Source of the DNA: a virus
Lineage: Duplodnaviria; Heunggongvirae; Uroviricota; Caudoviricetes
DNA length: 48,034 bases
Reading direction: 5' to 3' (one strand)
Virus record (IMG/VR): IMGVR_UViG_3300029079_000001
Made by a program: the position numbers and the translations under genes. The notes under the pieces were generated by a model that was not told where the DNA came from, searched no databases, and saw nothing but the letters and a program-made list of their open reading frames with translations. Positions 5,730 to 18,150 of the stretch are shown in pieces. Each line of letters starts with the position of its first letter. The first letter of the stretch is position 1.

Positions 5730-6770
5730 ATGGCTACATCGACAGTAATTCCTGAAGACATCAAAACGCTAAAATCCGACGTTAGCAAATTAAAAAACGA
5801 TCAAGGAAGCTACGCAACAAAATCATATGTAGACAGCAAAGATGAAACCGTTGGTGACTGGTCTGCTTCATGGTATCAGCAGGTATTGCCAACTAGCGGA
5901 GCTATATTTGGGAGAAAACTCCGCTCAACTCACCGGACGGCAGGTGTTGAGGATGCGTATTGCGAACTATACCTCAAAAAATGGATAGACAGTCCAGGTA
6001 ACGCAATGGCGCGCCTTAACCTGAACGATAACGGGACAAACATTTGCTGGGACTTTACCAACCTTTATGGCGGTACGATGATTTTTCCCGGTGACAGCGG
6101 ATACCTCAAAATGGGTAACTGCCTTATGTCATACAGCAAGCGTGGAAGTAACGCGCTTATTAAATTTGATTACACCGACACATTACAGATCAAATATGCC
6201 AATCATGGGTCAACCATGACATTAAACACACAGGGAACCGCTTATGCTGGTGTTACTGCTCAATTGTGGGGCAACTCCAGCCGTCCTGTTGTTTATGAAG
6301 TCGGTGTTGATGGTGGCGCTTATATGTTCTATGCGCAGAAAACTACCAGCAATACCTACGAATTAACGGTTAACGGCGCGTGCAATGCAAGTGCATTTAA
6401 TCAAGGCTCTGACCGGGATCTGAAAGACAATATTCAGGTGATCGATAATGCAACCGACCGCATTCGTAAAATGAACGGCTATACATACACGCTTAAAGAA
6501 AACGGTATGCCTTACGCTGGTGTTATTGCACAAGAAACCCTGGAAGCCATCCCCGAAGCCGTAGGGTCTATGATGAAATATCCAGACGGCGGGAGTGGAT
6601 TAGATGGAGAAGAAGGTGAACGGTATTACACTGTAGATTATTCTGGTGTTACTGGCTTGCTTGTTCAGGTAGCCAGAGAGTCAGACGACAGAATAACAGC
6701 ACTGGAAGAAGAAAACGCAGAATTAAGACAAAGATTATCTGCAATTGAGGCGGCGCTTGCGTCTAAATAA
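5730..6770 (+). CDS. Tail fiber / tail spike tip protein with C-terminal intramolecular chaperone (peptidase S74-like) domain
   Basis: C-terminal ...NQGS-DRDLKDNI... matches the S-D-x-x-x-K autoproteolysis motif, followed by a coiled-coil tail (EEENAELRQRLSAIEAALASK). Confidence 0.65.
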   Translation: MATSTVIPEDIKTLKSDVSKLKNDQGSYATKSYVDSKDETVGDWSASWYQQVLPTSGAIFGRKLRSTHRTAGVEDAYCELYLKKWIDSPGNAMARLNLNDNGTNICWDFTNLYGGTMIFPGDSGYLKMGNCLMSYSKRGSNALIKFDYTDTLQIKYANHGSTMTLNTQGTAYAGVTAQLWGNSSRPVVYEVGVDGGAYMFYAQKTTSNTYELTVNGACNASAFNQGSDRDLKDNIQVIDNATDRIRKMNGYTYTLKENGMPYAGVIAQETLEAIPEAVGSMMKYPDGGSGLDGEEGERYYTVDYSGVTGLLVQVARESDDRITALEEENAELRQRLSAIEAALASK

Positions 6771-7270: not shown

Positions 7271-8234
7271 AATTATCAGTAGATTGTTCCTCTAGTAACA
7301 ACTCAATTCTGCTTAGTATTTCTTTAGATATTTTTCGGCTATCAATTTTTATAGTTACAAAATTACCTTTATATCTAGCCGTGATCCCTTCCCCATATTT
7401 TTTCTCGTCTTTTGTTTTTTCCTCGTCGCCAACCAGAACAGAGTCAGATAATATTTGTATAATCCGTGAAGCTTCTAAATCCTCGCCGTTTTTTTTAATT
7501 GCCAGAAGATGATGAGCAGCATTGCTCATGGCAGCCATGTTTTTTTTGTAGACCTTAAACAAAGAATCTCCAGCACGAGCTGACAGTTCTCCTGGATGAT
7601 TGAAGATAGCTAATATATCTTTTGGTAGACCAGCTGTATTAATACAGCGAGTGATAATATTTCTGTCTATATTTTCAGCCTCGGCTAATGCTTTAACGTT
7701 ACCATCAAAGTCATTTAGCTTGCGTAAGTATCTCTTTCCTCTTTCGTATGCACTAATAGGCCTATAATCGTTACCAATTTGGGATAACCAATGCATCTGT
7801 TCATCGTCGAGATCACCTATTAAGACGCGATAGTCACATCCTGTTAATATCGCTGCTTTTCTTCTACGTGAGCCGTCAGCGACTTCAACGATTCCAGACA
7901 CTTTTCTGGCGAAAGCTGGATTTTGTTGTCCAGACGTTAGAAAAGATGGGATTAAATCGGCTAGAGAGGATTCATTTAATAAATCTTGATCGCGTTCATT
8001 ACCTAGCCATACCATTGTTGCCATTTCAACTTTATCTGCGGGAATTGTCTCTAACTTAAAGTTAACATTACGTCCGCATACTGGCAAAGTTATGCTGTTA
8101 CCGGTTAATGAACTCAGTTGACGTTTTAAATCACCAACCATAGGTGATACGGGCTGATGTTCAGGGGCATGATGATTATTACTCATAATGCGATTAATAT
8201 CTGGAGCATTTTTTAGAAGAGAGCGCTGTTTCAT
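7269..8234 (-). CDS. sopB: Partition protein SopB (ParB-type centromere-binding protein)
   Basis: 321 aa; ParB-like motif ...GSRRRKAAILTGCDYRVLIGDLDDEQ...; translationally coupled downstream of sopA. Confidence 0.8.
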   Translation of the reverse strand: MKQRSLLKNAPDINRIMSNNHHAPEHQPVSPMVGDLKRQLSSLTGNSITLPVCGRNVNFKLETIPADKVEMATMVWLGNERDQDLLNESSLADLIPSFLTSGQQNPAFARKVSGIVEVADGSRRRKAAILTGCDYRVLIGDLDDEQMHWLSQIGNDYRPISAYERGKRYLRKLNDFDGNVKALAEAENIDRNIITRCINTAGLPKDILAIFNHPGELSARAGDSLFKVYKKNMAAMSNAAHHLLAIKKNGEDLEASRIIQILSDSVLVGDEEKTKDEKKYGEGITARYKGNFVTIKIDSRKISKEILSRIELLLEEQSTDN

Positions 8235-9400
8235 TATTCGTTCTCCCAGCGAGGTTTTATTAGATCATCAAAAATTTCTCGGCAAACAGGGTCCCATATA
8301 GAAACAGCATTTCTCCATGCATTCAATGTTGAACGTTGGTTTGCTGCTTGTTCAAATACTGTTCTCATTTTTATCTGGCCTTTACCTACTTCATCGGTAA
8401 CGCGTACAACCTGACGTAATACCATTGATCCCCATGTATTTCTTATTTGTTCTTCCATCCATCGTGATTGATTCCCTGTAGTGAGACTATATTTAGTCAG
8501 AAGTAAGCGAACGGTTGGCTCAAATCCACCTAGGTCAACGCTTTCCAATAGATCGAGAAGCATTGTGAAAAACTGTAGAACAGAAGCGTAATCAAATAAT
8601 TCTGCAGGTGTAGCAACAACAATAACGTCAGCGGCACAAACAACGTTAATGGTTCCTGTACCGAGGTTCGGAGCACTATCTATAACGATAACATCGTAGT
8701 TATCCCAAACTGATTCAATAGCTGCGCGCAGCATAAGGTGTGGAGGATGAGGCAATTTACCCTGAGCATGATATTGCATGAGATCTGTTTCTATACGATG
8801 TAAAGCTAGGCAGCTAGGGATAATGTCTAGCCCAGGCCAACATGTTGGCTTTATAGCATATTCAGCGTTATCGCGTTCTCCTAAGTAAAATGGCAGTAAA
8901 GTATCCTCGGCATGGATATGTAAATCAGGAACATAACCGTGATACATAGAGGCCGTGCCTTGAGGATCGTTACCTTCAACCAAAAGAACACGATGACCTT
9001 GTAATGCTAACCATTGAGCTTGATGTACCGCAGACGATGTTTTATAAACGCCGCCTTTGTGTGACATAACGGCAAGCACAACAGGGTTTTTATCTTGTGG
9101 TCGTTGGTTTGGGTTGCCAAAAACTGCTCGCATACTGTTGATTTGATCTATGGTATAACCAGCACGACGTTCAATTCTTCCTCTCATTTCAAAGTCAGGT
9201 GCAGGTAAACGCCCGCTCTTCTCAGCATCTCTAATTGCTTGAGGAGTTACACCAATTAAATCTGCTACTTCAGTTATACCCCATCGGCGGGTGATACGCC
9301 GAGCTTCAGGACTATCATCACCGAATTGAGCGATTGCAATTGCTTGGGTCATTTCTTGACCTCTCGTAACACAATCTTGCAATAACTTTTTCAAAGACAT
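8234..9400 (-). CDS. sopA: Partition ATPase SopA (ParA/Walker-type, F SopA-like)
   Basis: 388 aa; deviant Walker A MSHKGGVYKTS; extensive similarity to recalled F-plasmid SopA (HTH ...AIAIAQFGDDSPEARRITRRW...). Confidence 0.9.
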   Translation of the reverse strand: MSLKKLLQDCVTRGQEMTQAIAIAQFGDDSPEARRITRRWGITEVADLIGVTPQAIRDAEKSGRLPAPDFEMRGRIERRAGYTIDQINSMRAVFGNPNQRPQDKNPVVLAVMSHKGGVYKTSSAVHQAQWLALQGHRVLLVEGNDPQGTASMYHGYVPDLHIHAEDTLLPFYLGERDNAEYAIKPTCWPGLDIIPSCLALHRIETDLMQYHAQGKLPHPPHLMLRAAIESVWDNYDVIVIDSAPNLGTGTINVVCAADVIVVATPAELFDYASVLQFFTMLLDLLESVDLGGFEPTVRLLLTKYSLTTGNQSRWMEEQIRNTWGSMVLRQVVRVTDEVGKGQIKMRTVFEQAANQRSTLNAWRNAVSIWDPVCREIFDDLIKPRWENE

Positions 9401-10047: not shown

Positions 10048-11949
10048 ATGAGCAAAGTAAAAATCGGTGAATTAATAAACTCACTTGTTAGCGATGTTGA
10101 GTCAATAGATAACTCTGACCGTCCTCAAGGGGAAAAAACAAAAAAAATAAAGGCTGTTGCATTAAAATTTAAAAATGCATTATTTAATGACAAGCGAAAG
10201 TTTAGGGGGAAAGGATTAGAAAAAAGAATTACAGCCAACACATTCAATGCCTATATGAGCAGGGCCAGAAAACGGTTTGATGATAAACTTCATCATAGCT
10301 TTGAAAAAAATATACATCGCCTATCTGAAAAGTATCCTTTATATAATGAGGAGCTATTGTCATGGCTTTCTCTACCTGCTGCCGATATTCGCCAGAGAAT
10401 GTCAGCTTTACAGGCAAAATTAAAATTAATTCTCCCTTTATCAGAAGATTTATCTAATATCAGAATTGGTGATAACAAAAGTCATAATAAGTTATTAAAA
10501 TTATCAAATAAATATAAAGAGTGGCAATTCGCCATATCTGATTTAACTAGCGATAACTGGAAAGATAAGCGCGATTATTTATATAAATTACTACAGCAAG
10601 GATCTGCCTTACTTGAGGAGTTGAATCAGCTAAAAGTTAACCATGAGATTCTCTATCATCTTCAACTAAGCCCTGCCGAACGCGCATCTATCCAGCAACG
10701 ATGGGCGGACGTTCTGCACAATAAGAAACGTAACGTGGTGGTCATTGATTACCCTAAATATATGCAAGCTATTTACGATATTATAAATAGCCCTGCTACA
10801 TTAAATAATCTAAACACTCGTTCAGGTATGGCTCCTTTGGCATTTGCACTTGCAGCATTGTCAGGAAGACGAATGATTGAGATTATGTATCAAGGTACAT
10901 TTACTGTTTCTGGTAAGTATACCGTTGATTTTTTAGGCCAAGCAAAAAAAAGAACTTCTGATGATATAACCAGAAAAATATATACATTATGCGAAGCAAA
11001 AACATTTGTTTATTTAATAAATGTACTTCGCTCATGCCCAGCAGCATCTGATTTTGATGATGTCGTTAAAGGTTATGGAGATAACGACACACGCTCTGAA
11101 AACGGACGGATTAATGCCATATTAGCAAAGGCTTTTAACCCGTGGGTTAAATCATTTTTCAAAGATGACCGCCGTGTTTATAAAGATAGTCGTGCTATTT
11201 ATGCCCGTATTGCGTATGAAATGTTTTTCCGCGTAGATCCTCGTTGGAAAAACGTAGATGAGGATGTTTTCTTTATGGAAATTTTAGGCCATGACGATGA
11301 AAACACTCAATTACACTATAAGCAATTCAAGCTGGCCAACTTCTCAAAGACATGGAGGCCAAATACTGGAAACGAAAATACCAGGCTGGAAGCATTGCAG
11401 CAGCTTGATGACGAAATGCCAGGATTCGCCAGAGGAGATGCCGGGGTTCGTCTGCATAACACAGTTAAGCAGCTGGTAGAGCAGGACCCCTCTATAAAAA
11501 TCACGAACAGCACTCTAAGAGCATTCAAATTTAGCCCTACAATGATTAGTCGATACCTGGAATTTGCTGCTGATGCTCTGGGGCAATTTGTTGGCGAAAA
11601 TGGACAATGGCAGCTGAAAATAGATTCTCCAGAAATCGTTATGCCTGACGAAGAAGAGCTGGAAGCAATACCTGAACAGACGGATGAATTATCAGAGGAT
11701 GACGATCTGGATGACGACGAAATTGAGATAGAGGAAGAGGAAGAGGAAGAGGAAGAGAGCGTAGAAGAACAGCAACCGCCCGCGCCTTCTTCACCTGTAT
11801 CTAAGCCGGTATTTAAGCCCGTGAGAAATATTGGTGATGGCTCATACGTTGTTGAGTTTCATTATAATGGCCAGAATTATGCTTGGTCCGGCATTGCAAA
11901 CAGCCCTATATCAGCAATGCAGTTAGCATGGCTGACATATTTCGGATAA
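10048..11949 (+). CDS. telN: Protelomerase TelN (telomere resolvase)
   Basis: 633 aa; N15 TelN-like sequence throughout with an acidic EEEEEEE C-terminal region; directly adjacent to the palindromic target. Confidence 0.9.
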   Translation: MSKVKIGELINSLVSDVESIDNSDRPQGEKTKKIKAVALKFKNALFNDKRKFRGKGLEKRITANTFNAYMSRARKRFDDKLHHSFEKNIHRLSEKYPLYNEELLSWLSLPAADIRQRMSALQAKLKLILPLSEDLSNIRIGDNKSHNKLLKLSNKYKEWQFAISDLTSDNWKDKRDYLYKLLQQGSALLEELNQLKVNHEILYHLQLSPAERASIQQRWADVLHNKKRNVVVIDYPKYMQAIYDIINSPATLNNLNTRSGMAPLAFALAALSGRRMIEIMYQGTFTVSGKYTVDFLGQAKKRTSDDITRKIYTLCEAKTFVYLINVLRSCPAASDFDDVVKGYGDNDTRSENGRINAILAKAFNPWVKSFFKDDRRVYKDSRAIYARIAYEMFFRVDPRWKNVDEDVFFMEILGHDDENTQLHYKQFKLANFSKTWRPNTGNENTRLEALQQLDDEMPGFARGDAGVRLHNTVKQLVEQDPSIKITNSTLRAFKFSPTMISRYLEFAADALGQFVGENGQWQLKIDSPEIVMPDEEELEAIPEQTDELSEDDDLDDDEIEIEEEEEEEEESVEEQQPPAPSSPVSKPVFKPVRNIGDGSYVVEFHYNGQNYAWSGIANSPISAMQLAWLTYFG

Positions 11950-11994: not shown

Positions 11995-12159
11995 CTACCT
12001 CGCCTGCCCCTTTTCGTCCTCATCCAACTTTCTGATGGCCGTAGAATCAATACCCGCCGCCATACACACATCAGATGCAACAAACCACGGTTCGCCGTTA
12101 ATCATCACTACACGAACCTGATGCTCTTCCTGAAAGGAAAATACTGCTAACGCGCTCAT
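11995..12159 (-). CDS. Truncated Bro-N-domain antirepressor fragment (54 aa)
   Basis: MSALAVFSFQEEHQVRVVMINGEPWFVASDVCMAAGIDSTAIRKLDEDEK matches the Bro-N consensus; ATGA coupling to the upstream ORF; below the 60-aa cut-off of the ORF track. Confidence 0.6.
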   Translation of the reverse strand: MSALAVFSFQEEHQVRVVMINGEPWFVASDVCMAAGIDSTAIRKLDEDEKGQAR

Positions 12160-12389
12160 TCAGCCTCCTTATCGTGCAGCAATTGCGACGAGAGCGATGC
12201 TGAATAACCCTGTGCTTCGTGTGTGAGCTCACACGCAATTTGAAGGAGTTTCCCTGCTTCTGAGAGATAAATCGACGCCTCACAACTGGAGATTGTCCGA
12301 TGGGCTGATGATACGAGCGCATAGACCTGAGCCAGACGTTCATCCAACGATTCCAGCAGGCCAACAGTGTTCATTTTTACCTGATTCAT
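12156..12389 (-). CDS. Hypothetical protein (77 aa), middle gene of the coupled three-gene operon
   Basis: ORF with overlapping start/stop (ATGA) on both sides. Confidence 0.5.
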   Translation of the reverse strand: MNQVKMNTVGLLESLDERLAQVYALVSSAHRTISSCEASIYLSEAGKLLQIACELTHEAQGYSASLSSQLLHDKEAE

Positions 12390-12550
12390 GCAGCCACCTC
12401 GCGCACCGGAATACGGGCAGATAATACCAGGACAAACCGGCTGGCGAACTGGCGACGAGCTTCCCGTTCAGATGACGCGATGGTGGAAAGATGATGGATG
12501 TGTGACTTTTTGTCTGTGCGAACGATTGCCGCAAATTTGAATTTGAACAT
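12386..12550 (-). CDS. Hypothetical small protein (54 aa), first gene after the leader terminator
   Basis: MFKFKFAAIVRTDKK...; stop overlaps the next start; not in the ORF track (<60 aa). Confidence 0.4.
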   Translation of the reverse strand: MFKFKFAAIVRTDKKSHIHHLSTIASSEREARRQFASRFVLVLSARIPVREVAA

Positions 12551-12711
12551 GGTATGCACTCCGTTTAATTGGTCGTGCTACCACCAGAGTTCCTACGCTC
12601 TATATGGCGGTAGCCCAGACGGGGGTAGGAATACCGGTAAACGAAGAAACCGGCCAGCTAAAAGCTGCCCCATCTGAGCCACCATAAATTTGGTGTACGC
12701 AGATTTTACAC

Positions 12712-12736
12712 ACAAAAAAACACGCTGGCGCGTGTT
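12712..12736 (-). terminator. Intrinsic terminator inside the leader of the antirepressor-like operon
   Basis: On the minus strand AACACGC-GCCA-GCGTGTT followed by TTTTTTT. Confidence 0.7.
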
Positions 12737-12739
12737 GTG

Positions 12740-12900
12740 CGCTTCATTTACTCGGGTTCCTACGCCCGGCTACGGGATTTACCGTAGCAGAGTAAACTTT
12801 ACCGTCAAAACGACGCGCACGTCAATAATTTGCAAAGACATTTTACCCCGTGACCAGTCACGGGGACAGGTGTTTTTATAATTTGCTTGAACGAGTGATC
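12740..12900 (-). ncRNA. Candidate leader/small regulatory RNA region (N15 CA / P4 CI RNA-like control of the antirepressor operon)
   Basis: No ORF; 9-bp-stem hairpin CCCCGTGAC/GTCACGGGG at 12846..12865; lies upstream of the terminator; the 10-mer GTTCCTACGC occurs twice (12589, 12756) with a partially complementary GGTAGGAAT at 12624. Confidence 0.35.
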
Positions 12901-12926
12901 AGAAGTTGATCGTTAATCAAAGGCCA

Positions 12927-13238
12927 TTACTGATTAAGAGATTGGAAATACCTAACTAACTTACCGGCATCATCACATTTTTCTTTATCTTCGTCCTTAA
13001 CATAGCCGCGACAAAAGGCTGAATAAAATTTTGCATTTTCAGAAGCAAAAGCAGCCGTCGAAAGGAGCAGCTCTTTGCATGACTCTTTTGATGCAGCATC
13101 GGGATTATTTTTACATGCAAGCTCCGCTGATGAGTTAATAACAGAAATGCTATCTTCCTGGGCATAAACCGCAGCAGAAAAGGCAAAACATAAAACAAAA
13201 ATAAAACTCTTCACTTTATCTCCTGTAACAGTCATCAC
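12927..13238 (-). CDS. Secreted Cys-rich small protein (signal peptide, ~80-aa mature part)
   Basis: N-terminus KSFIFVLCFAFSAAVYA|QED is a Sec signal; four Cys in the mature part; AT-rich. Confidence 0.55.
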   Translation of the reverse strand: MMTVTGDKVKSFIFVLCFAFSAAVYAQEDSISVINSSAELACKNNPDAASKESCKELLLSTAAFASENAKFYSAFCRGYVKDEDKEKCDDAGKLVRYFQSLNQ

Positions 13239-13241
13239 AAT

Positions 13242-13649
13242 TCAATCAACTTTTTTAGCATCAGCCATACGATTCAACCAGGAATCAACAATCGGTTGCT
13301 CATCTACAGAATGTTTACCAGGTATAACTCGCCAGCTATCTTGCGAAAATCTGCCGTACTTACGCGGGAATAGGCCTTTCTTTATCTCCCGCCATGTAGT
13401 AGGAAAACCATCCACAAAAGTACCAATTAACAGGAGAGGGACAAAAATCAGAGCTACAAACCATCGTGCAAGAAAGTGTTCAACAACAACATTTTCACCG
13501 TTGTAGTAATACGCATACGCATCCAATATGCGAATTTTCCTTACCTTAAAAATAGCCTTATGCTGAGAACGACTTAACTTGATACGAATGTATCCCTTAT
13601 CCAAAGGGGATTCGTATTTGTATGATTGAACAGCCATTTTTAACCCCAC
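13242..13649 (-). CDS. Membrane-anchored hypothetical protein (135 aa)
   Basis: Central TM segment WFVALIFVPLLLIGTFV. Confidence 0.5.
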   Translation of the reverse strand: MGLKMAVQSYKYESPLDKGYIRIKLSRSQHKAIFKVRKIRILDAYAYYYNGENVVVEHFLARWFVALIFVPLLLIGTFVDGFPTTWREIKKGLFPRKYGRFSQDSWRVIPGKHSVDEQPIVDSWLNRMADAKKVD

Positions 13650-13966
13650 TCACCATCAGCAAACAAAGCGTTATACTCTGACAATGGTAGACGGTTGCCC
13701 TCGATGTAGAGATTCAGTTCATACTTCGTCTCCGGGTTTTCCTTGTCGGCTCGTTCCCAACGCTCAGCAGCCTTACGCGCCAATAATTCCACTGCTTTCA
13801 GATAATCCTCCGTACGGAACCAGCCAAAGATAAGGCCACGATCTGTTACAGCCCAGGCGACCTTTTTTTCTTCCTCCTGGATAGCCCTAATGCGTCGTTC
13901 GCACTCATCCCGGCAGAACTGCAGCTGACGGTAATCAAGTTTGTCCAAAAATGCCGTAGTAGACAT
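13640..13966 (-). CDS. Hypothetical soluble protein (108 aa)
   Basis: ORF overlapping its neighbours; charged, Cys-x-x-x-Cys near the N-terminus. Confidence 0.5.
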   Translation of the reverse strand: MSTTAFLDKLDYRQLQFCRDECERRIRAIQEEEKKVAWAVTDRGLIFGWFRTEDYLKAVELLARKAAERWERADKENPETKYELNLYIEGNRLPLSEYNALFADGEWG

Positions 13967-13970
13967 ATTT

Positions 13971-14162
13971 TTACTCCCCGTTCACCGAAAATTCACGATA
14001 GAAACGTTTCCACATACGATAAGTCTGCGCAAATTGTTCACCACGAAACATCGCCTTCCTGGCCTTCATGTTTTCCTTGTGAGACTTTCGGTCTATGAAC
14101 CAAAACCATTGATGGAACACACAAAGCAAGAGACACAAAGATAATATCCAATCATTACCCAT
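13971..14162 (-). CDS. Small membrane protein (63 aa), translationally coupled to the repA stop
   Basis: ATG at 14162 overlaps the repA stop; TM segment WILSLCLLLCVFHQWFWFI; the ORF track gives a longer 13971..14279 frame. Confidence 0.5.
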   Translation of the reverse strand: MGNDWILSLCLLLCVFHQWFWFIDRKSHKENMKARKAMFRGEQFAQTYRMWKRFYREFSVNGE

Positions 14163-17100
14163 AGAAAGCGCCCTGCTCTTCGTAGCTGCATGAGCTATTC
14201 CCCGTAATGTATTCACGTAACCGCCGCAGCTCATTGCTGGAAAGGTGATCCATGAACTCTGTGAGGTACAGGGATGCAAACGTCATAGCTATGCTGGCTG
14301 ATGACCATGATGACATAGTGGCCAACTCCTCACTGGAAAGCGCACTCATCGCCCAGGACTCAGGTACAGCCACTGGCAACACGGCCAAAGCCTCAGAAAT
14401 TACTGAATGAGGGGCGTTTTGAACCTGCTCGTTTGTGGATCGCGTTTTATCATCCATATATATATTGAGATCCAAATCGCGATCCATTTCGATGGCTGTC
14501 TTCTCGGCTTTACGCGTTTTTAGGGTTAGGCCATCTTTCTGACGCTGAACAAGAATATCCAGCATAAATGCCGCTGATTCAGGCTCAACAAAACGCAAGG
14601 TTGGACGCTTATCGCCGTCTCTGCCGCGACGTTTACCTGTTTTAAGGCCAAGAGAGTCGCAAATGTTTTTAAACAACGCTTCCGGCACTTTAGGCTTCCC
14701 TTTTGGCGTCATAAAACCACCAATGTGCAGAACGTTATTCAACAGGTCACGGCGTTCGGCTGTCATGAGGTTATCTCGAGCGAATTTGAGACGCTCCTGA
14801 GTCGCCTCGCCGGTCATAGTCTCAGGGTTGATACCGCAGTCGATAAAGTACTGCCGGAGAGTTGCTGATTTAAGCGCATAGAAACCGCGCGCCCCGACTT
14901 CAACAGTAGGAGTAGCTTTTACCTTGTGATCGATTATTCCAGGGAATTTAGTTTTAAAGACATCATCAGCCTGCTCGCGAGTCATCGCGGTCACTACAAA
15001 ATATTGCCACTGTCCCGCCTGACGGTATGCGTAGGTAAAATTGATGGCTGCTTCTTCCCGGTCGTAACGACGAGCTGTTACCTCATCTAAAAGCATTGTT
15101 TCATAGCGGCGAACTTTGTCTCGAGCACCATCGAAATAGAATTTCAGCGTGCCTTCTTCAACCGGTAGTTTCAGTTCGTTTTCAATATCCCAGCGGACAA
15201 GTTTTGCCTGTTCTTCAAGCGTCAGCGCGCGTTTTTTTAGCAGTTCTTCACGCTCTGATTCTTGTGGAGTTTCTGTATTGAGGTGCAGATCCAGTGTCTG
15301 TTCCCACACAATATCCCGCGCTTCTTTACGCAGATCTTTACCGATATCATTCGCAGCATAATCGGTGGCCAGCGGTGATACCTTATAACCGTCGCTGTGC
15401 ATGATGCAGATCATGTTGCTGGCGTAGTCGTTACGCGCAGTCGCTTCAATTGCGGCTGCTTTAATTTTCATCCTGGTAAAGTCGGTATTGGCCACCCCCA
15501 TTGATATACGGTCGCCATCGAAAACGACATCCGTCAGTTCACCGTTCATACCTGCGGTAGCAAGCAATGCCTGGGCGAATGCTCGTTCTATTTTTTGCGG
15601 GTCAGTTTCTCGTTTTGCACGAGCTTTATCAAAGCCGATAATAAATTCTTTTGCTGTACGGTCGCGGCGTAGCATTTGCACTGCGTCGCTGGGTACAACT
15701 TCACCACAGAACATGCCGAAATGACGGTCAAAATGTTTTTGCTCAATCGACACGCCGGATGAAATAGACGGGCTATAAATCAGGCCGTCGTATTTTTTGA
15801 CCATCTTTTTCGGTTGATTGGTAAATGCTTCAACTTCTGGCTCTGGTTTGTTTTTCTGGTTTACACACAGAAATTTCTTACCAGGAAAATGCATTCTCAG
15901 GGTGGCTGTCACATCTTCTGCAAAGGTGGAGCTGTCGGTGGCCAACATGATTTTTTCGCCATCCGATACAGCTTTCACCACCTCGGTCATGATGCGATCT
16001 TTTTCTGTATAAAAAACCCGGATTGGCTCACCTGTTTCGCGGTTGCGAACATCAACAGGTAATTCAATTACGTGGATCTGCAGCCATGCCGGTAAACCTA
16101 GTTCTTCACGGCGTTTCATAGCCAGTTCAGCCAGGTCAACCAGTAGATCGTTCGCATCAGCATCCACCATGATTGGGTGTTGTTCCGTTCTGGCCAGCGC
16201 GTCAATTAGCGTATTGAATACAGCAACCGGGTTTTCCATAGCCCGACCGGAAAGAACGGCACGTAGCCCTTGCGTGGCCTCGTCAAAGCCAAAATAGTCG
16301 TGCTGGCGCATCAACGGTTGCCAGCAGTTTTTAACAATCGAGTTTATGCAGATGGTCAGTTTACTGGCGTATGGAGCAATTTCCTGATAGCCAGGGTCCT
16401 GATAGTGCAGGATATCGGCTTTTACACCTTTTCCTTCTGTCATCATTTCCCACAGGCCACCAATAAGGGAGACACGGTGAGCAACAGAGATACCACGTTC
16501 TGAGCTATGCATTAACGGTCGTAACAATCCAGTAGATTTGCCGGAACCCATACCAGCACGGACGATGACTATCCCCTGTAGTGATTGCACGTACTTCAGG
16601 ACATCATCGGTCATTACCGAAGTTTCAAAACGCTTATAGGTGATATGTTGAGGGCGTTTATTGGGATCAGTTATGCGTTCGCTGAAAGAGCGCGGAGCCT
16701 GGGCAATACGGCACTTTTTATTCAGGCGACGGGCAATGTGGTCTTTTACCGTAGCACGATAGATATTTTCCAGTCCCATTTCACGCAGAACGATGCAGAA
16801 CATGTTAAATAAATCTGACGGACTGTTAGGAACCGGGCAGGTTAGCATGCCAATATCCACCGCTCTCAGCAGCTCTTTGGCAAAAGTACGACGGTTATCC
16901 CGCTTAATTGTCTTCAGGCGGTTGAGCGTCAGAGATAGCAAATCAGTACCGGTTTTCAGGCGGTTTGCTGTTGCAAATAGTTGACGTGCTGTTTCACGAA
17001 GTCCACGTAGTTTGTGCAGGTCGTTGAAGTCACTGCACTCCATTTGCGGATCGTCTTCAAAAGTTGGATAGACGCAGCGGACATCGTTGAATTTCGATAA

Positions 17101-18150
17101 GATTTCATAGCCAGTCCGCAGGCCGGTATTCCCTTTTCCTTCTGTGGCAGATTTCCGGTCATTATCCAGTGCGCAGGTGATTTTTGCCGCCGGGTACATG
17201 TTTACCAGTTGTTCCACAACATGAACCATGTTGTTAGCGGATACAGCGACAACCACAGCGTCAAAGCGTTTATCTTTTTTCGTGGCAAGCCAGATGGATG
17301 CACCAGTAGCAAAACCTTCTGTAACAGCGATGTTTTGCGCCCCTTTCAGCTCACCGATAACAAAGCAGGCACCGACGAAATCGCCGCTGGTTACTGCGCT
17401 GGTCTGGTATTTCCCACCTTGTTTGTCGATTCGCTGCCAACCCACAATACGACCATCATAACGACCGTCCAGGTGAGCCAGAGGGATAGCCATATATGTG
17501 GTTGGCCCCCGGCTCCATTTCGCACTGTCGTGACTGGTCACGCGACGCACATCACATGAACTAAAAACGTCACGAATACCTTTTTTAATCGCATATGGCC
17601 ATGAGCCGTCTTCAGCCTGAGCATGTTCCCACGCGCTGTGGAATGCCAGCCATCCCAGCAAACGTTCATGGTCCATTTGGTTGTTTTTCAGGTCATTAAT
17701 TCGTTTTTGTTCTTCACGGCGACGACGTGCTTCGGCCTGACGTTCTATTCTTTCCCGTTCTTCTTCCGGTTGTGCGACCACGGTCGCATTATTCCGTTGT
17801 TGCTCACGGCGATATTCAGAAAACAGGAAGGAGAAACCGCTCCATGAGCCAGCATCGCTGCCTTTATGGACGAAGTTAATGAACGGGTAATCAATCCCTT
17901 TGCTGTGTTCCAGCCTGGAGTAAATTTCTACGCGTCCTTTCAGGCTCTTTTCGAGAGCTTCTGGAGATGTTTTATTGTATGAAGAGTAACGCTCAACCCC
18001 CCCGCGAGGGTTGAGTTGGATGTTGTCGGAACAGGCAGACCAGTTGATACCAGCCATCTGTGCCAGCTCGGTTAGTTCATCCCGTGCTGCTTCAATTAGC
18101 GAGAACGGATCGCTGCCAAAGCGATCCGCATAGAAATCGTTTAATGTCAT
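14155..18150 (-). CDS. repA: Replication protein RepA (multidomain primase-helicase, N15 RepA-like)
   Basis: 1331 aa; Walker A GMGSGKST in the helicase part; position and size match N15 repA; sopC-like palindrome #1 lies inside it at 17771..17788. Confidence 0.85.
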   Translation of the reverse strand: MTLNDFYADRFGSDPFSLIEAARDELTELAQMAGINWSACSDNIQLNPRGGVERYSSYNKTSPEALEKSLKGRVEIYSRLEHSKGIDYPFINFVHKGSDAGSWSGFSFLFSEYRREQQRNNATVVAQPEEERERIERQAEARRRREEQKRINDLKNNQMDHERLLGWLAFHSAWEHAQAEDGSWPYAIKKGIRDVFSSCDVRRVTSHDSAKWSRGPTTYMAIPLAHLDGRYDGRIVGWQRIDKQGGKYQTSAVTSGDFVGACFVIGELKGAQNIAVTEGFATGASIWLATKKDKRFDAVVVAVSANNMVHVVEQLVNMYPAAKITCALDNDRKSATEGKGNTGLRTGYEILSKFNDVRCVYPTFEDDPQMECSDFNDLHKLRGLRETARQLFATANRLKTGTDLLSLTLNRLKTIKRDNRRTFAKELLRAVDIGMLTCPVPNSPSDLFNMFCIVLREMGLENIYRATVKDHIARRLNKKCRIAQAPRSFSERITDPNKRPQHITYKRFETSVMTDDVLKYVQSLQGIVIVRAGMGSGKSTGLLRPLMHSSERGISVAHRVSLIGGLWEMMTEGKGVKADILHYQDPGYQEIAPYASKLTICINSIVKNCWQPLMRQHDYFGFDEATQGLRAVLSGRAMENPVAVFNTLIDALARTEQHPIMVDADANDLLVDLAELAMKRREELGLPAWLQIHVIELPVDVRNRETGEPIRVFYTEKDRIMTEVVKAVSDGEKIMLATDSSTFAEDVTATLRMHFPGKKFLCVNQKNKPEPEVEAFTNQPKKMVKKYDGLIYSPSISSGVSIEQKHFDRHFGMFCGEVVPSDAVQMLRRDRTAKEFIIGFDKARAKRETDPQKIERAFAQALLATAGMNGELTDVVFDGDRISMGVANTDFTRMKIKAAAIEATARNDYASNMICIMHSDGYKVSPLATDYAANDIGKDLRKEARDIVWEQTLDLHLNTETPQESEREELLKKRALTLEEQAKLVRWDIENELKLPVEEGTLKFYFDGARDKVRRYETMLLDEVTARRYDREEAAINFTYAYRQAGQWQYFVVTAMTREQADDVFKTKFPGIIDHKVKATPTVEVGARGFYALKSATLRQYFIDCGINPETMTGEATQERLKFARDNLMTAERRDLLNNVLHIGGFMTPKGKPKVPEALFKNICDSLGLKTGKRRGRDGDKRPTLRFVEPESAAFMLDILVQRQKDGLTLKTRKAEKTAIEMDRDLDLNIYMDDKTRSTNEQVQNAPHSVISEALAVLPVAVPESWAMSALSSEELATMSSWSSASIAMTFASLYLTEFMDHLSSNELRRLREYITGNSSCSYEEQGAFYG
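17771..17788. repeat. sopC-like centromere palindrome #1 (inside repA)
   Basis: TGTGCGACCACGGTCGCA. Confidence 0.6.

Follow-up and report, generated by a model that had tools for sequence, protein, structure and literature searches.

Four small genes downstream of repA

In this analysis, we focus on four small genes, designated orfA to orfD, in the IMG/VR virus record IMGVR_UViG_3300029079_000001 (Caudoviricetes), a stretch of DNA of 48,034 nucleotides (nt) that is referred to below as the window. All four genes are encoded on the minus strand and directly follow repA (14155–18150, minus strand), the upstream gene of the operon, whose product has 1331 amino acids (aa). The first of them, orfA (13971–14162), encodes a 63-aa protein with a hydrophobic N-terminal anchor (residues ~5–23) and a basic C-terminal tail, followed by orfB (13640–13966), which encodes a 108-aa soluble alpha/beta protein of the N15 gp35 family (phrog_10878). 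The product of orfC (13242–13637) is a 131-aa protein with a hydrophobic helix at residues ~56–79 (phrog_15458), and that of orfD (12927–13214), which starts with GTG, is a 95-aa precursor with a signal peptide and four cysteines (phrog_26765). The best-supported description of these sequences is one of two layers, in which orfA and orfB form a semi-conserved pair linked to repA, and orfC and orfD are AT-rich, exchangeable cargo. A preliminary description of this DNA had grouped all four as envelope-targeted accessory genes; the cluster is not, however, one homogeneous envelope cassette, orfB being predicted to be soluble and the tail of orfA to be cytoplasmic.

By its gene content, the window is an N15-type linear (telomere) phage-plasmid, in line with the phage-plasmid claim of the preliminary description: it carries sopA (8234–9400, minus strand), the gene for a 633-aa protelomerase (telN, 10048–11949, plus strand), repA, and a C4/icd/ant anti-immunity locus, and its gene order is that of phage N15. 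In megablast comparisons, the Escherichia phage PhiR46_1 is 96% identical to the window, and about 30 non-mobilizable plasmids, mostly ~46 kilobases (kb) in size and hosted by E. coli, Shigella, E. fergusonii, and E. albertii, reach identities of up to 99.4%. The repA gene of relatives is annotated either as a "plasmid replication protein, CyRepA1 family" or as a primase, and its N15 equivalent is gp37. At least part of the four-gene cluster is found in 17 of 5,426 complete E. coli genomes, in every case on a plasmid.

Gene starts, composition, and coding evidence

All four open reading frames (ORFs) are present behind repA, as had been described. Their tight overlap holds only at the head of the cluster, where the orfA ATG overlaps the repA stop codon within ATGGGTAA; the other junctions are gaps of 4, 2, and 27 nt. 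Thus orfB starts 4 nt past the orfA stop, with a GGGGAG Shine-Dalgarno sequence ahead of it. The most likely start of orfC is the ATG at 13637, because it lies 2 nt past the orfB stop and homologues have the same length; the previously given 135-aa product, which uses an upstream GTG, is less likely than the 131-aa one. For orfD, the most likely start is the GTG at 13214, giving a 95-aa product that begins MKSFIF, since AGGAG is found 5 nt upstream, an alternative ATG at 13235 is replaced by ATA in seven relatives that retain both the Shine-Dalgarno sequence and the GTG, and a homologue of 45% identity has an ATG at the position equivalent to 13214.

The ratio of nonsynonymous to synonymous polymorphism (pN/pS) against relatives is 0.14–0.2 for orfB and orfD, ~0.35 for orfC (based on up to 44 substitutions), and 0.36–0.54 for orfA, with few substitutions in the last case; for comparison, the 3′ end of repA gives 0.1–0.19. 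The existence of homologues for each gene, together with ratios below 1, confirms at the sequence level that all four are genuine genes under purifying selection. Their composition is less uniform than the preliminary description, which called all of them AT-rich, had suggested. The GC content at third codon positions (GC3) is low in orfC and orfD (0.35 and 0.29), whereas orfA and orfB (0.50 and 0.52; 49.5% GC overall in orfB) resemble repA (0.48).

The earlier statement that none of the proteins has a recognisable domain is borne out: searches of the four against Pfam, NCBIfam, and PADLOC gave nothing above noise, and PHROGs returned unnamed families for orfB, orfC, and orfD. For orfA, no match was obtained in Pfam, PHROGs, NCBIfam, PADLOC, or PDB, and sequence searches of PDB with orfD, orfA, orfC, and an orfB profile likewise found nothing.

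A variable cargo slot behind repA

The content of the corresponding region was compared among relatives, using 38 loci anchored on the RepA C-terminus and seven annotated records, which yielded 34 distinct repA-to-icd intervals. Each interval was measured between the repA stop and a point ~130 nt ahead of icd, which falls roughly at the C4 RNA; gene presence was counted by tblastn. The intervals are 0.5 to 3.0 kb long, and a catalogue of their small ORFs, built from ATG starts only, contains 29 sequence clusters, of which about 15 are shared by at least two loci. Genes like orfA and orfB are present in 23 and 21 of the 34 intervals, compared with 14 for orfC and 7 for orfD; six intervals contain all four genes and five contain none. 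It is this gradient of occupancy, together with the GC3 values, that separates the two layers. Relatives therefore lack some or all of the four genes, and the cluster is neither invariant nor essential for replication. One example is pEC12401-3, where a single unrelated 74-aa gene fills the slot although the C-terminal segment of RepA is 98% identical.

Several of the alternative contents are directed at the cell envelope. In E. fergusonii and several IMG/VR relatives, orfD is swapped for the gene of a 270-aa lipoprotein with the lipobox LLSGC and no Pfam match (locus L004, 1720–2532, minus strand; also L008, L016, and L017), and the junction of this exchange lies ~20 nt past the orfC stop; a different, 143-aa lipoprotein occupies the slot in L044. 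A gene for a 181-aa, Colicin_im-like membrane protein with four transmembrane segments occurs in six loci (among them L030, L033, L034, L040, and L045). In L030 (6829–8534, both strands checked), this gene has as its neighbour a convergent ORF of 377 aa whose C-terminal region is hydrophobic and which we read from its sequence as a putative pore-forming telocin; the pair, placed directly after orfA-, orfB-, and gp34-like genes, has the appearance of a telocin:immunity cassette that is not part of the published Klebsiella set. In Klebsiella telomere phages, a telocin:immunity locus is located "between RepA and protelomerase" and is expressed in lysogens (PMC12042878). The presence/absence comparison that the preliminary description had called for thus reveals a variable cargo slot with turnover of content, in which Klebsiella relatives carry published telocin:immunity genes.

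Two further observations concern the same interval. In L037, a gene for a 185-aa Rv2179c-like 3′–5′ exoribonuclease (5898–6455; Pfam E-value 4e-13) lies between repA and the orfA-like gene. In the relatives NZ_LR883007.1 and NZ_CP126913.1, the insertion sequence (IS) elements ISKpn26 and IS2 are found in or near the orfC/orfD slot, which is consistent with a recombination-tolerant cargo site.

A moron, in the classical definition of Juhala and Hendrix, is an inserted gene of deviant base composition with its own promoter and terminator. Variable presence combined with deviant composition is seen in orfC and orfD, with a precise swap junction, and is not seen in orfA and orfB.

The repA-linked pair, orfA and orfB

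The overlap between repA and orfA is nearly constant: in the family alignment, 32 of 33 loci share an identical 8-nt overlap, which persists even where the last 100 residues of RepA are ~72% identical. The conserved part of orfA is a basic C-terminal motif, RG..FA..YR.W+.VYRE. By the positive-inside rule, the sequence suggests an N-out/C-in topology, which would place this conserved tail in the cytoplasm. The preliminary description had listed orfA as a single-pass envelope gene; the N-terminal hydrophobic segment agrees with that, but the conserved part is predicted to be cytoplasmic and is coupled to repA.

The orfB product, correctly described earlier as soluble, has no predicted hydrophobic segment. 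It is 64% identical to N15 gp35 over 107 aa (E-value 2e-50), which occupies the same position downstream of repA, and matches phrog_10878 across 104 of 104 profile positions (E-value 2e-52). Its homologues fall into 73 clusters, many of them on contigs of ~40–60 kb, the size of these elements, and share many invariant surface aromatic residues, including those in the C-terminal ...LFADGxWG. Diverged paralogues of orfB are found in the same slot, namely DUF5448-like genes and N15 gp34 (fold match probability 0.90). An envelope or exclusion role for this pair is unsupported, considering that orfB belongs to a soluble, widely conserved gp35 family and that the tail of orfA is predicted to be cytoplasmic.

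These features raise the alternative that orfA, orfB, and perhaps also orfC serve RepA-driven replication or the maintenance of the linear plasmid as accessory factors; in one version, orfA would tether the replisome or RepA to the membrane while its tail binds a partner, and orfB would be a RepA cofactor. The nearly constant coupling of orfA to repA, the conserved cytoplasmic motif, the spread of orfB over many homologue clusters on contigs of the appropriate size, its invariant surface aromatics, and the backbone-like GC3 of both genes all favour such a role. However, N15 has an unrelated soluble protein, gp36, at the place of orfA; orfA is missing from 11 and orfB from 13 of the 34 intervals, all four genes being missing from five; and pEC12401-3 does without both despite its nearly identical RepA segment. 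Moreover, orfB has tandem paralogues (gp34 and the DUF5448-like genes), a pattern that fits an accessory array better than a core cofactor. Replication has been found to require only repA, or repA and telN for the linear form (PMC10612081). Because natural variants lack orfA and orfB and minimal replicons do not need them, the two genes are dispensable for replication, and we consider the accessory-factor explanation unlikely.

The exchangeable pair, orfC and orfD

The orfC protein is 97% identical to the product of a gene of phage YDC107_1 and matches phrog_15458 over the full profile (E-value 1.3e-90), a family whose function is listed as unknown. All of its occurrences are in N15-like elements, and in most of the loci whose gene order was inspected, an orfB-like gene immediately precedes it. 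The earlier designation of this protein as membrane-anchored is supported by its one strong hydrophobic helix, but both flanks of the helix are basic, so that the topology is ambiguous.

The orfD protein was described earlier as a cysteine-rich periplasmic protein with a signal peptide, and the prediction agrees: a Sec-type signal peptide is predicted with cleavage at MKSFIFVLCFAFSAAVYA|QED, leaving a mature protein of ~77 aa, and the four cysteines are conserved in the family. In the family alignment, C34, C46, C68, and C80 are invariant and the signal peptide is kept down to 32% identity. The match to phrog_26765 covers the full profile (E-value 2.6e-62; function listed as unknown), and an exhaustive HMMER search of 1.84 billion representatives returned 13 hits. 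An AlphaFold2 model built on six sequences shows a three-helix bundle past the signal peptide (pLDDT 75.5); a Foldseek comparison of this model with PDB gave no fold match, the best E-value among the 41 hits listed being 2.5.

Distant relatives of orfD occur in several genomic settings. P0091 is located in the same slot of another N15-like element. P0094 and P0096 each directly precede a tape-measure gene, which is the position of the HK97 gp15 moron. In a lambda-like tail module (L052, 4937–5723), P0093 and a gene for a 137-aa lipoprotein that follows it stand between a Lambda_tail_I-like gene and the adjoining tail gene, forming a two-gene envelope moron. Since its members occur at the N15 slot, at the site before the tape-measure gene, and between tail genes, the family appears, from these sequence contexts, to serve temperate phages as exported moron cargo.

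Several database homologues of orfD (P0003, P0005, P0007, P0008, and P0010) are frameshifted into an alternative frame, which corresponds to the window ORF at 12956–13198. The frameshifts lie near A/T homopolymer runs, mostly in CP088xxx plasmid assemblies, and every orfD copy from the short-read-derived IMG/VR relatives is intact. These disrupted copies, the IS elements that interrupt the slot in some relatives, and the tiny size of the orfD family might indicate that orfC and orfD are decaying or neutral passengers. The low pN/pS of orfD and its integrity in the short-read relatives contradict this, as do the signal peptide and four cysteines preserved at 32% identity and the ratio observed for orfC over up to 44 substitutions, leaving the passenger explanation improbable.

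Comparison with known exclusion and cargo systems

The orfD homologue of PhiR46_1, which is 95.1% identical by tblastn and 97% identical over a mature-length query, is labelled "Spackle exclusion protein" in GenBank (PV340565.1). If the label were right, orfD would be a homologue of T4 Spackle (Sp), which acts in the periplasm and inhibits the lysozyme at the tail tip of superinfecting phages. There is a general likeness: Sp, whose role is superinfection exclusion, is a small helical periplasmic protein made as a signal-peptide precursor, orfD is predicted to be of the same kind, with a cleavable signal peptide, and the two precursors have ~95–97 aa. With the T4 Sp sequence checked against PDB entries 6x6o and 7cn6, however, a phmmer search of PDB, which holds both entries, recovered no Sp; hhalign gave a probability of 2.4% between the orfD family and T4 Sp and aligned only 12 signal-peptide residues (MKxFIF...); no Spackle chain appeared among the 41 Foldseek hits to the orfD model, whose confidence is moderate; and orfD has four invariant cysteines against two in mature Sp. 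The label is thus not supported by sequence or by the predicted fold, and a Spackle homologue is a very improbable identity for orfD.

Two exclusion systems resemble the cluster, or the relatives of orfD, in arrangement. The sim genes of P1 form a cluster of small signal-peptide proteins beside the c4-icd-ant operon of a phage-plasmid, and Sim blocks superinfection at a post-adsorption step. Unlike orfA to orfD, which follow repA and point in the same direction as C4, sim is divergent from c4 and has its own promoters, and a BLASTP comparison of SimA, SimB, and SimC with the four proteins and the interval ORFs of relatives gave a best E-value of 1.1. The HK97 gp15 gene, annotated as a moron product, is reportedly responsible for superinfection exclusion, a finding ascribed to Cumby et al. 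in 2012. It resembles the orfD relatives P0094 and P0096 in being small, envelope-targeted, and placed between the tail-chaperone region and the tape-measure gene; it differs in being a 62-aa membrane protein, whereas orfD is predicted to be a soluble exported protein, and it shows no similarity to orfA or orfD.

The telocin:immunity locus (NAR688 TelA/ImmA and TelB–E; Sci Adv 2025, PMC12042878) shares the slot and likewise varies in content among close relatives, and relatives of the window carry a telocin-type cassette directly after orfA-like and orfB-like genes. In contrast, orfC and orfD are unrelated in sequence to telocin or immunity proteins, and the ORF list and Pfam searches revealed no pore-forming toxin or multi-transmembrane Colicin_im-type immunity gene in 12912–14154. 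The protein called gp35 in the proteomics of the same study follows that phage's own numbering and is a RelE/ParE toxin, not a homologue of N15 gp35.

In N15 itself, four small genes (genes 33–36, in the order gp36-gp35-gp34-gp33) occupy the identical position and orientation between repA (gene 37) and cA/icd/ant. N15 gp33, like orfC, has one hydrophobic helix, but hhalign assigned the two families a probability of 0.5%, that is, no homology. N15 has no counterpart of orfA, orfC, or orfD, and gp36, gp34, and gp33 are not found in the window. A search of the literature on Spackle in connection with N15, PhiR46, DUF5448, and telomere-phage superinfection exclusion returned nothing on these genes.

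Boundaries and expression of the cluster

Homology to all relatives, whatever cassette they carry, resumes ~12–23 nt past the orfD stop. The variable cargo interval of the window therefore extends over ~12912–14154, bounded by the repA stop and the beginning of the anti-immunity flank, and comprises exactly these four genes. Within 12927–14162, a consensus scan, which is crude and whose negative result is weak, found no minus-strand promoter-like site, and a promoter/terminator scan found no convincing terminator-like site inside the cluster, in agreement with the earlier view of one unit packed behind repA. The next promoter-like site on the minus strand, reading from 12825 to 12796, belongs to the C4 locus.

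The cassette is closely followed by a perfect palindrome, CCCCGTGAC-TG-GTCACGGGG (12855–12875). Among 45 oriented sequences searched, it is identical in the window and 27 related loci, and it is kept even in loci with 72–78% identity in the RepA C-terminus. It is located ~30 nt upstream of the −35 element of the anti-immunity promoter and forms a hairpin in RNA folding, with no U-tract on the minus strand, and was not called by the terminator scan. It may be a weak or unconventional terminator, mark where the RNA of the repA operon ends, or act as an operator of the promoter that follows.

The anti-immunity locus (12386–12825, minus strand) is a separate unit that forms the 3′ boundary of the cluster. 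Rfam identified a complete C4 antisense RNA (12603–12689, minus strand; 73.6 bits) and, within 12603–12801 on the same strand, an isrK-like Hfq-binding RNA with a canonical terminator (62.5 bits) and a c4-a1b1 target at a sub-threshold score of 33 bits; by sequence, these elements constitute an RNA-controlled anti-immunity switch of the P1/N15 type. An icd-like gene (12386–12559, minus strand) follows, whose product shares 91% identity with the C-terminal portion of N15 gp32, and the unit further contains a gp31-like gene and a truncated Bro-N antirepressor gene. The latter (11995–12159, minus strand) encodes 54 aa, compared with 259–264 aa in N15 gp30 and most relatives, and the annotation of PhiR46_1 has the same short form; the anti-immunity operon may therefore lack a functional antirepressor.

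In this arrangement, orfA to orfD would be the distal part of a leftward early operon that starts with repA. Since no promoter was detected for them alone, and each is either translationally coupled to its neighbour or separated from it by a short gap, their expression would accompany any transcription of repA. The prophage repressor CB of N15 and phiKO2 occupies two OL operators that cover the repA promoter, which reduces both transcription of repA and copy number (PMC4997575). With such partial repression, expression of the four genes would be expected to be low in the lysogen and high after induction.

A repressor-controlled early leftward operon also fits another explanation, that the cluster consists of early lytic host-takeover or anti-defence genes comparable to the small genes of lambda PL, needed mainly after induction or infection and not for lysogenic conversion. 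The variable array of small proteins with paralogues and the exoribonuclease gene in one relative's interval agree with it. Nevertheless, Pfam and PADLOC gave no match for the four proteins, the interval proteins of relatives match no Pfam anti-defence family, a Sec-exported periplasmic protein such as orfD would be in an unusual place for an anti-defence factor, and in relatives the slot is demonstrably used for telocin:immunity cargo that is expressed in lysogens. On balance, we regard this explanation as quite unlikely.

Proposed function and its standing

The reading we prefer is that orfA to orfD are distal genes of the early left operon situated in a cargo slot, with orfC and orfD exchangeable and orfD protecting the envelope; we give it about an even chance of being right as a whole. 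The envelope and exclusion interpretation of the preliminary description is plausible for orfD, weak for orfC, and not supported for orfA or orfB. According to this proposal, orfD would be exported by the Sec pathway, its signal peptide cleaved, and two disulfides formed in the periplasm, where the protein would shield the lysogen envelope, either by blocking DNA entry of superinfecting phages or by neutralising a lysin or bacteriocin that acts in the periplasm. Envelope protection is the most likely role of orfD by analogy, given that the slot is shared with lipoproteins and immunity genes, that its relatives stand at moron positions, and that P1 Sim offers a parallel. The orfC protein may be a membrane partner of orfD or independent cargo. 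The orfA protein would be a small protein anchored in the inner membrane with its tail facing the cytoplasm, and orfA and orfB would probably modulate a host or replication-linked process.

Several points weigh against this proposal. No homology, fold match, or experiment connects the four proteins with an established function in exclusion, receptor masking, or immunity or with any other activity, and the empty fold search and generic three-helix model of orfD, built on six sequences, carry little functional information. The charges flanking the orfC helix fit neither topology cleanly. The promoter and terminator of a classical moron were not detected in the cluster by the scan, the hairpin past orfD being part of the conserved flank, and co-transcription with repA is deduced from the sequence. 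The frameshifted orfD homologues might reflect relaxed selection rather than long-read errors. Finally, in the proteomics of a Klebsiella telomere-phage lysogen, RepA and the neighbouring genes of unknown function were not among the nine phage proteins detected (PMC12042878); expression in the lysogen may therefore be very low.

A more far-reaching version would make orfD the founder of a new family of Sec-exported, doubly disulfide-stapled, three-helix periplasmic shields, placed at moron positions of unrelated temperate phages and acting against DNA injection, lysins, or bacteriocins, with orfA and orfB as a membrane-anchored module at the interface of replication and host. This version is tentative, and we hold it to be unlikely in its full extent.

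Significance

Telomere phage-plasmids are common in Enterobacterales, and their slot between repA and telN has recently been shown to deliver bacteriocin weapons. The hotspot itself is already known, and the genes described here are new cargo genes within it. For the E. coli lineage, the content of the slot is divided into a semi-conserved pair coupled to repA and swappable, putatively envelope-directed cargo, a division that provides small, concrete targets for deletion and exclusion assays. The misleading "Spackle" label in a public phage record, which would otherwise spread by annotation transfer, is corrected. The comparison also brings out a new family of predicted exported four-cysteine proteins that is common to the N15 slot and to the tail-module morons of other phages.

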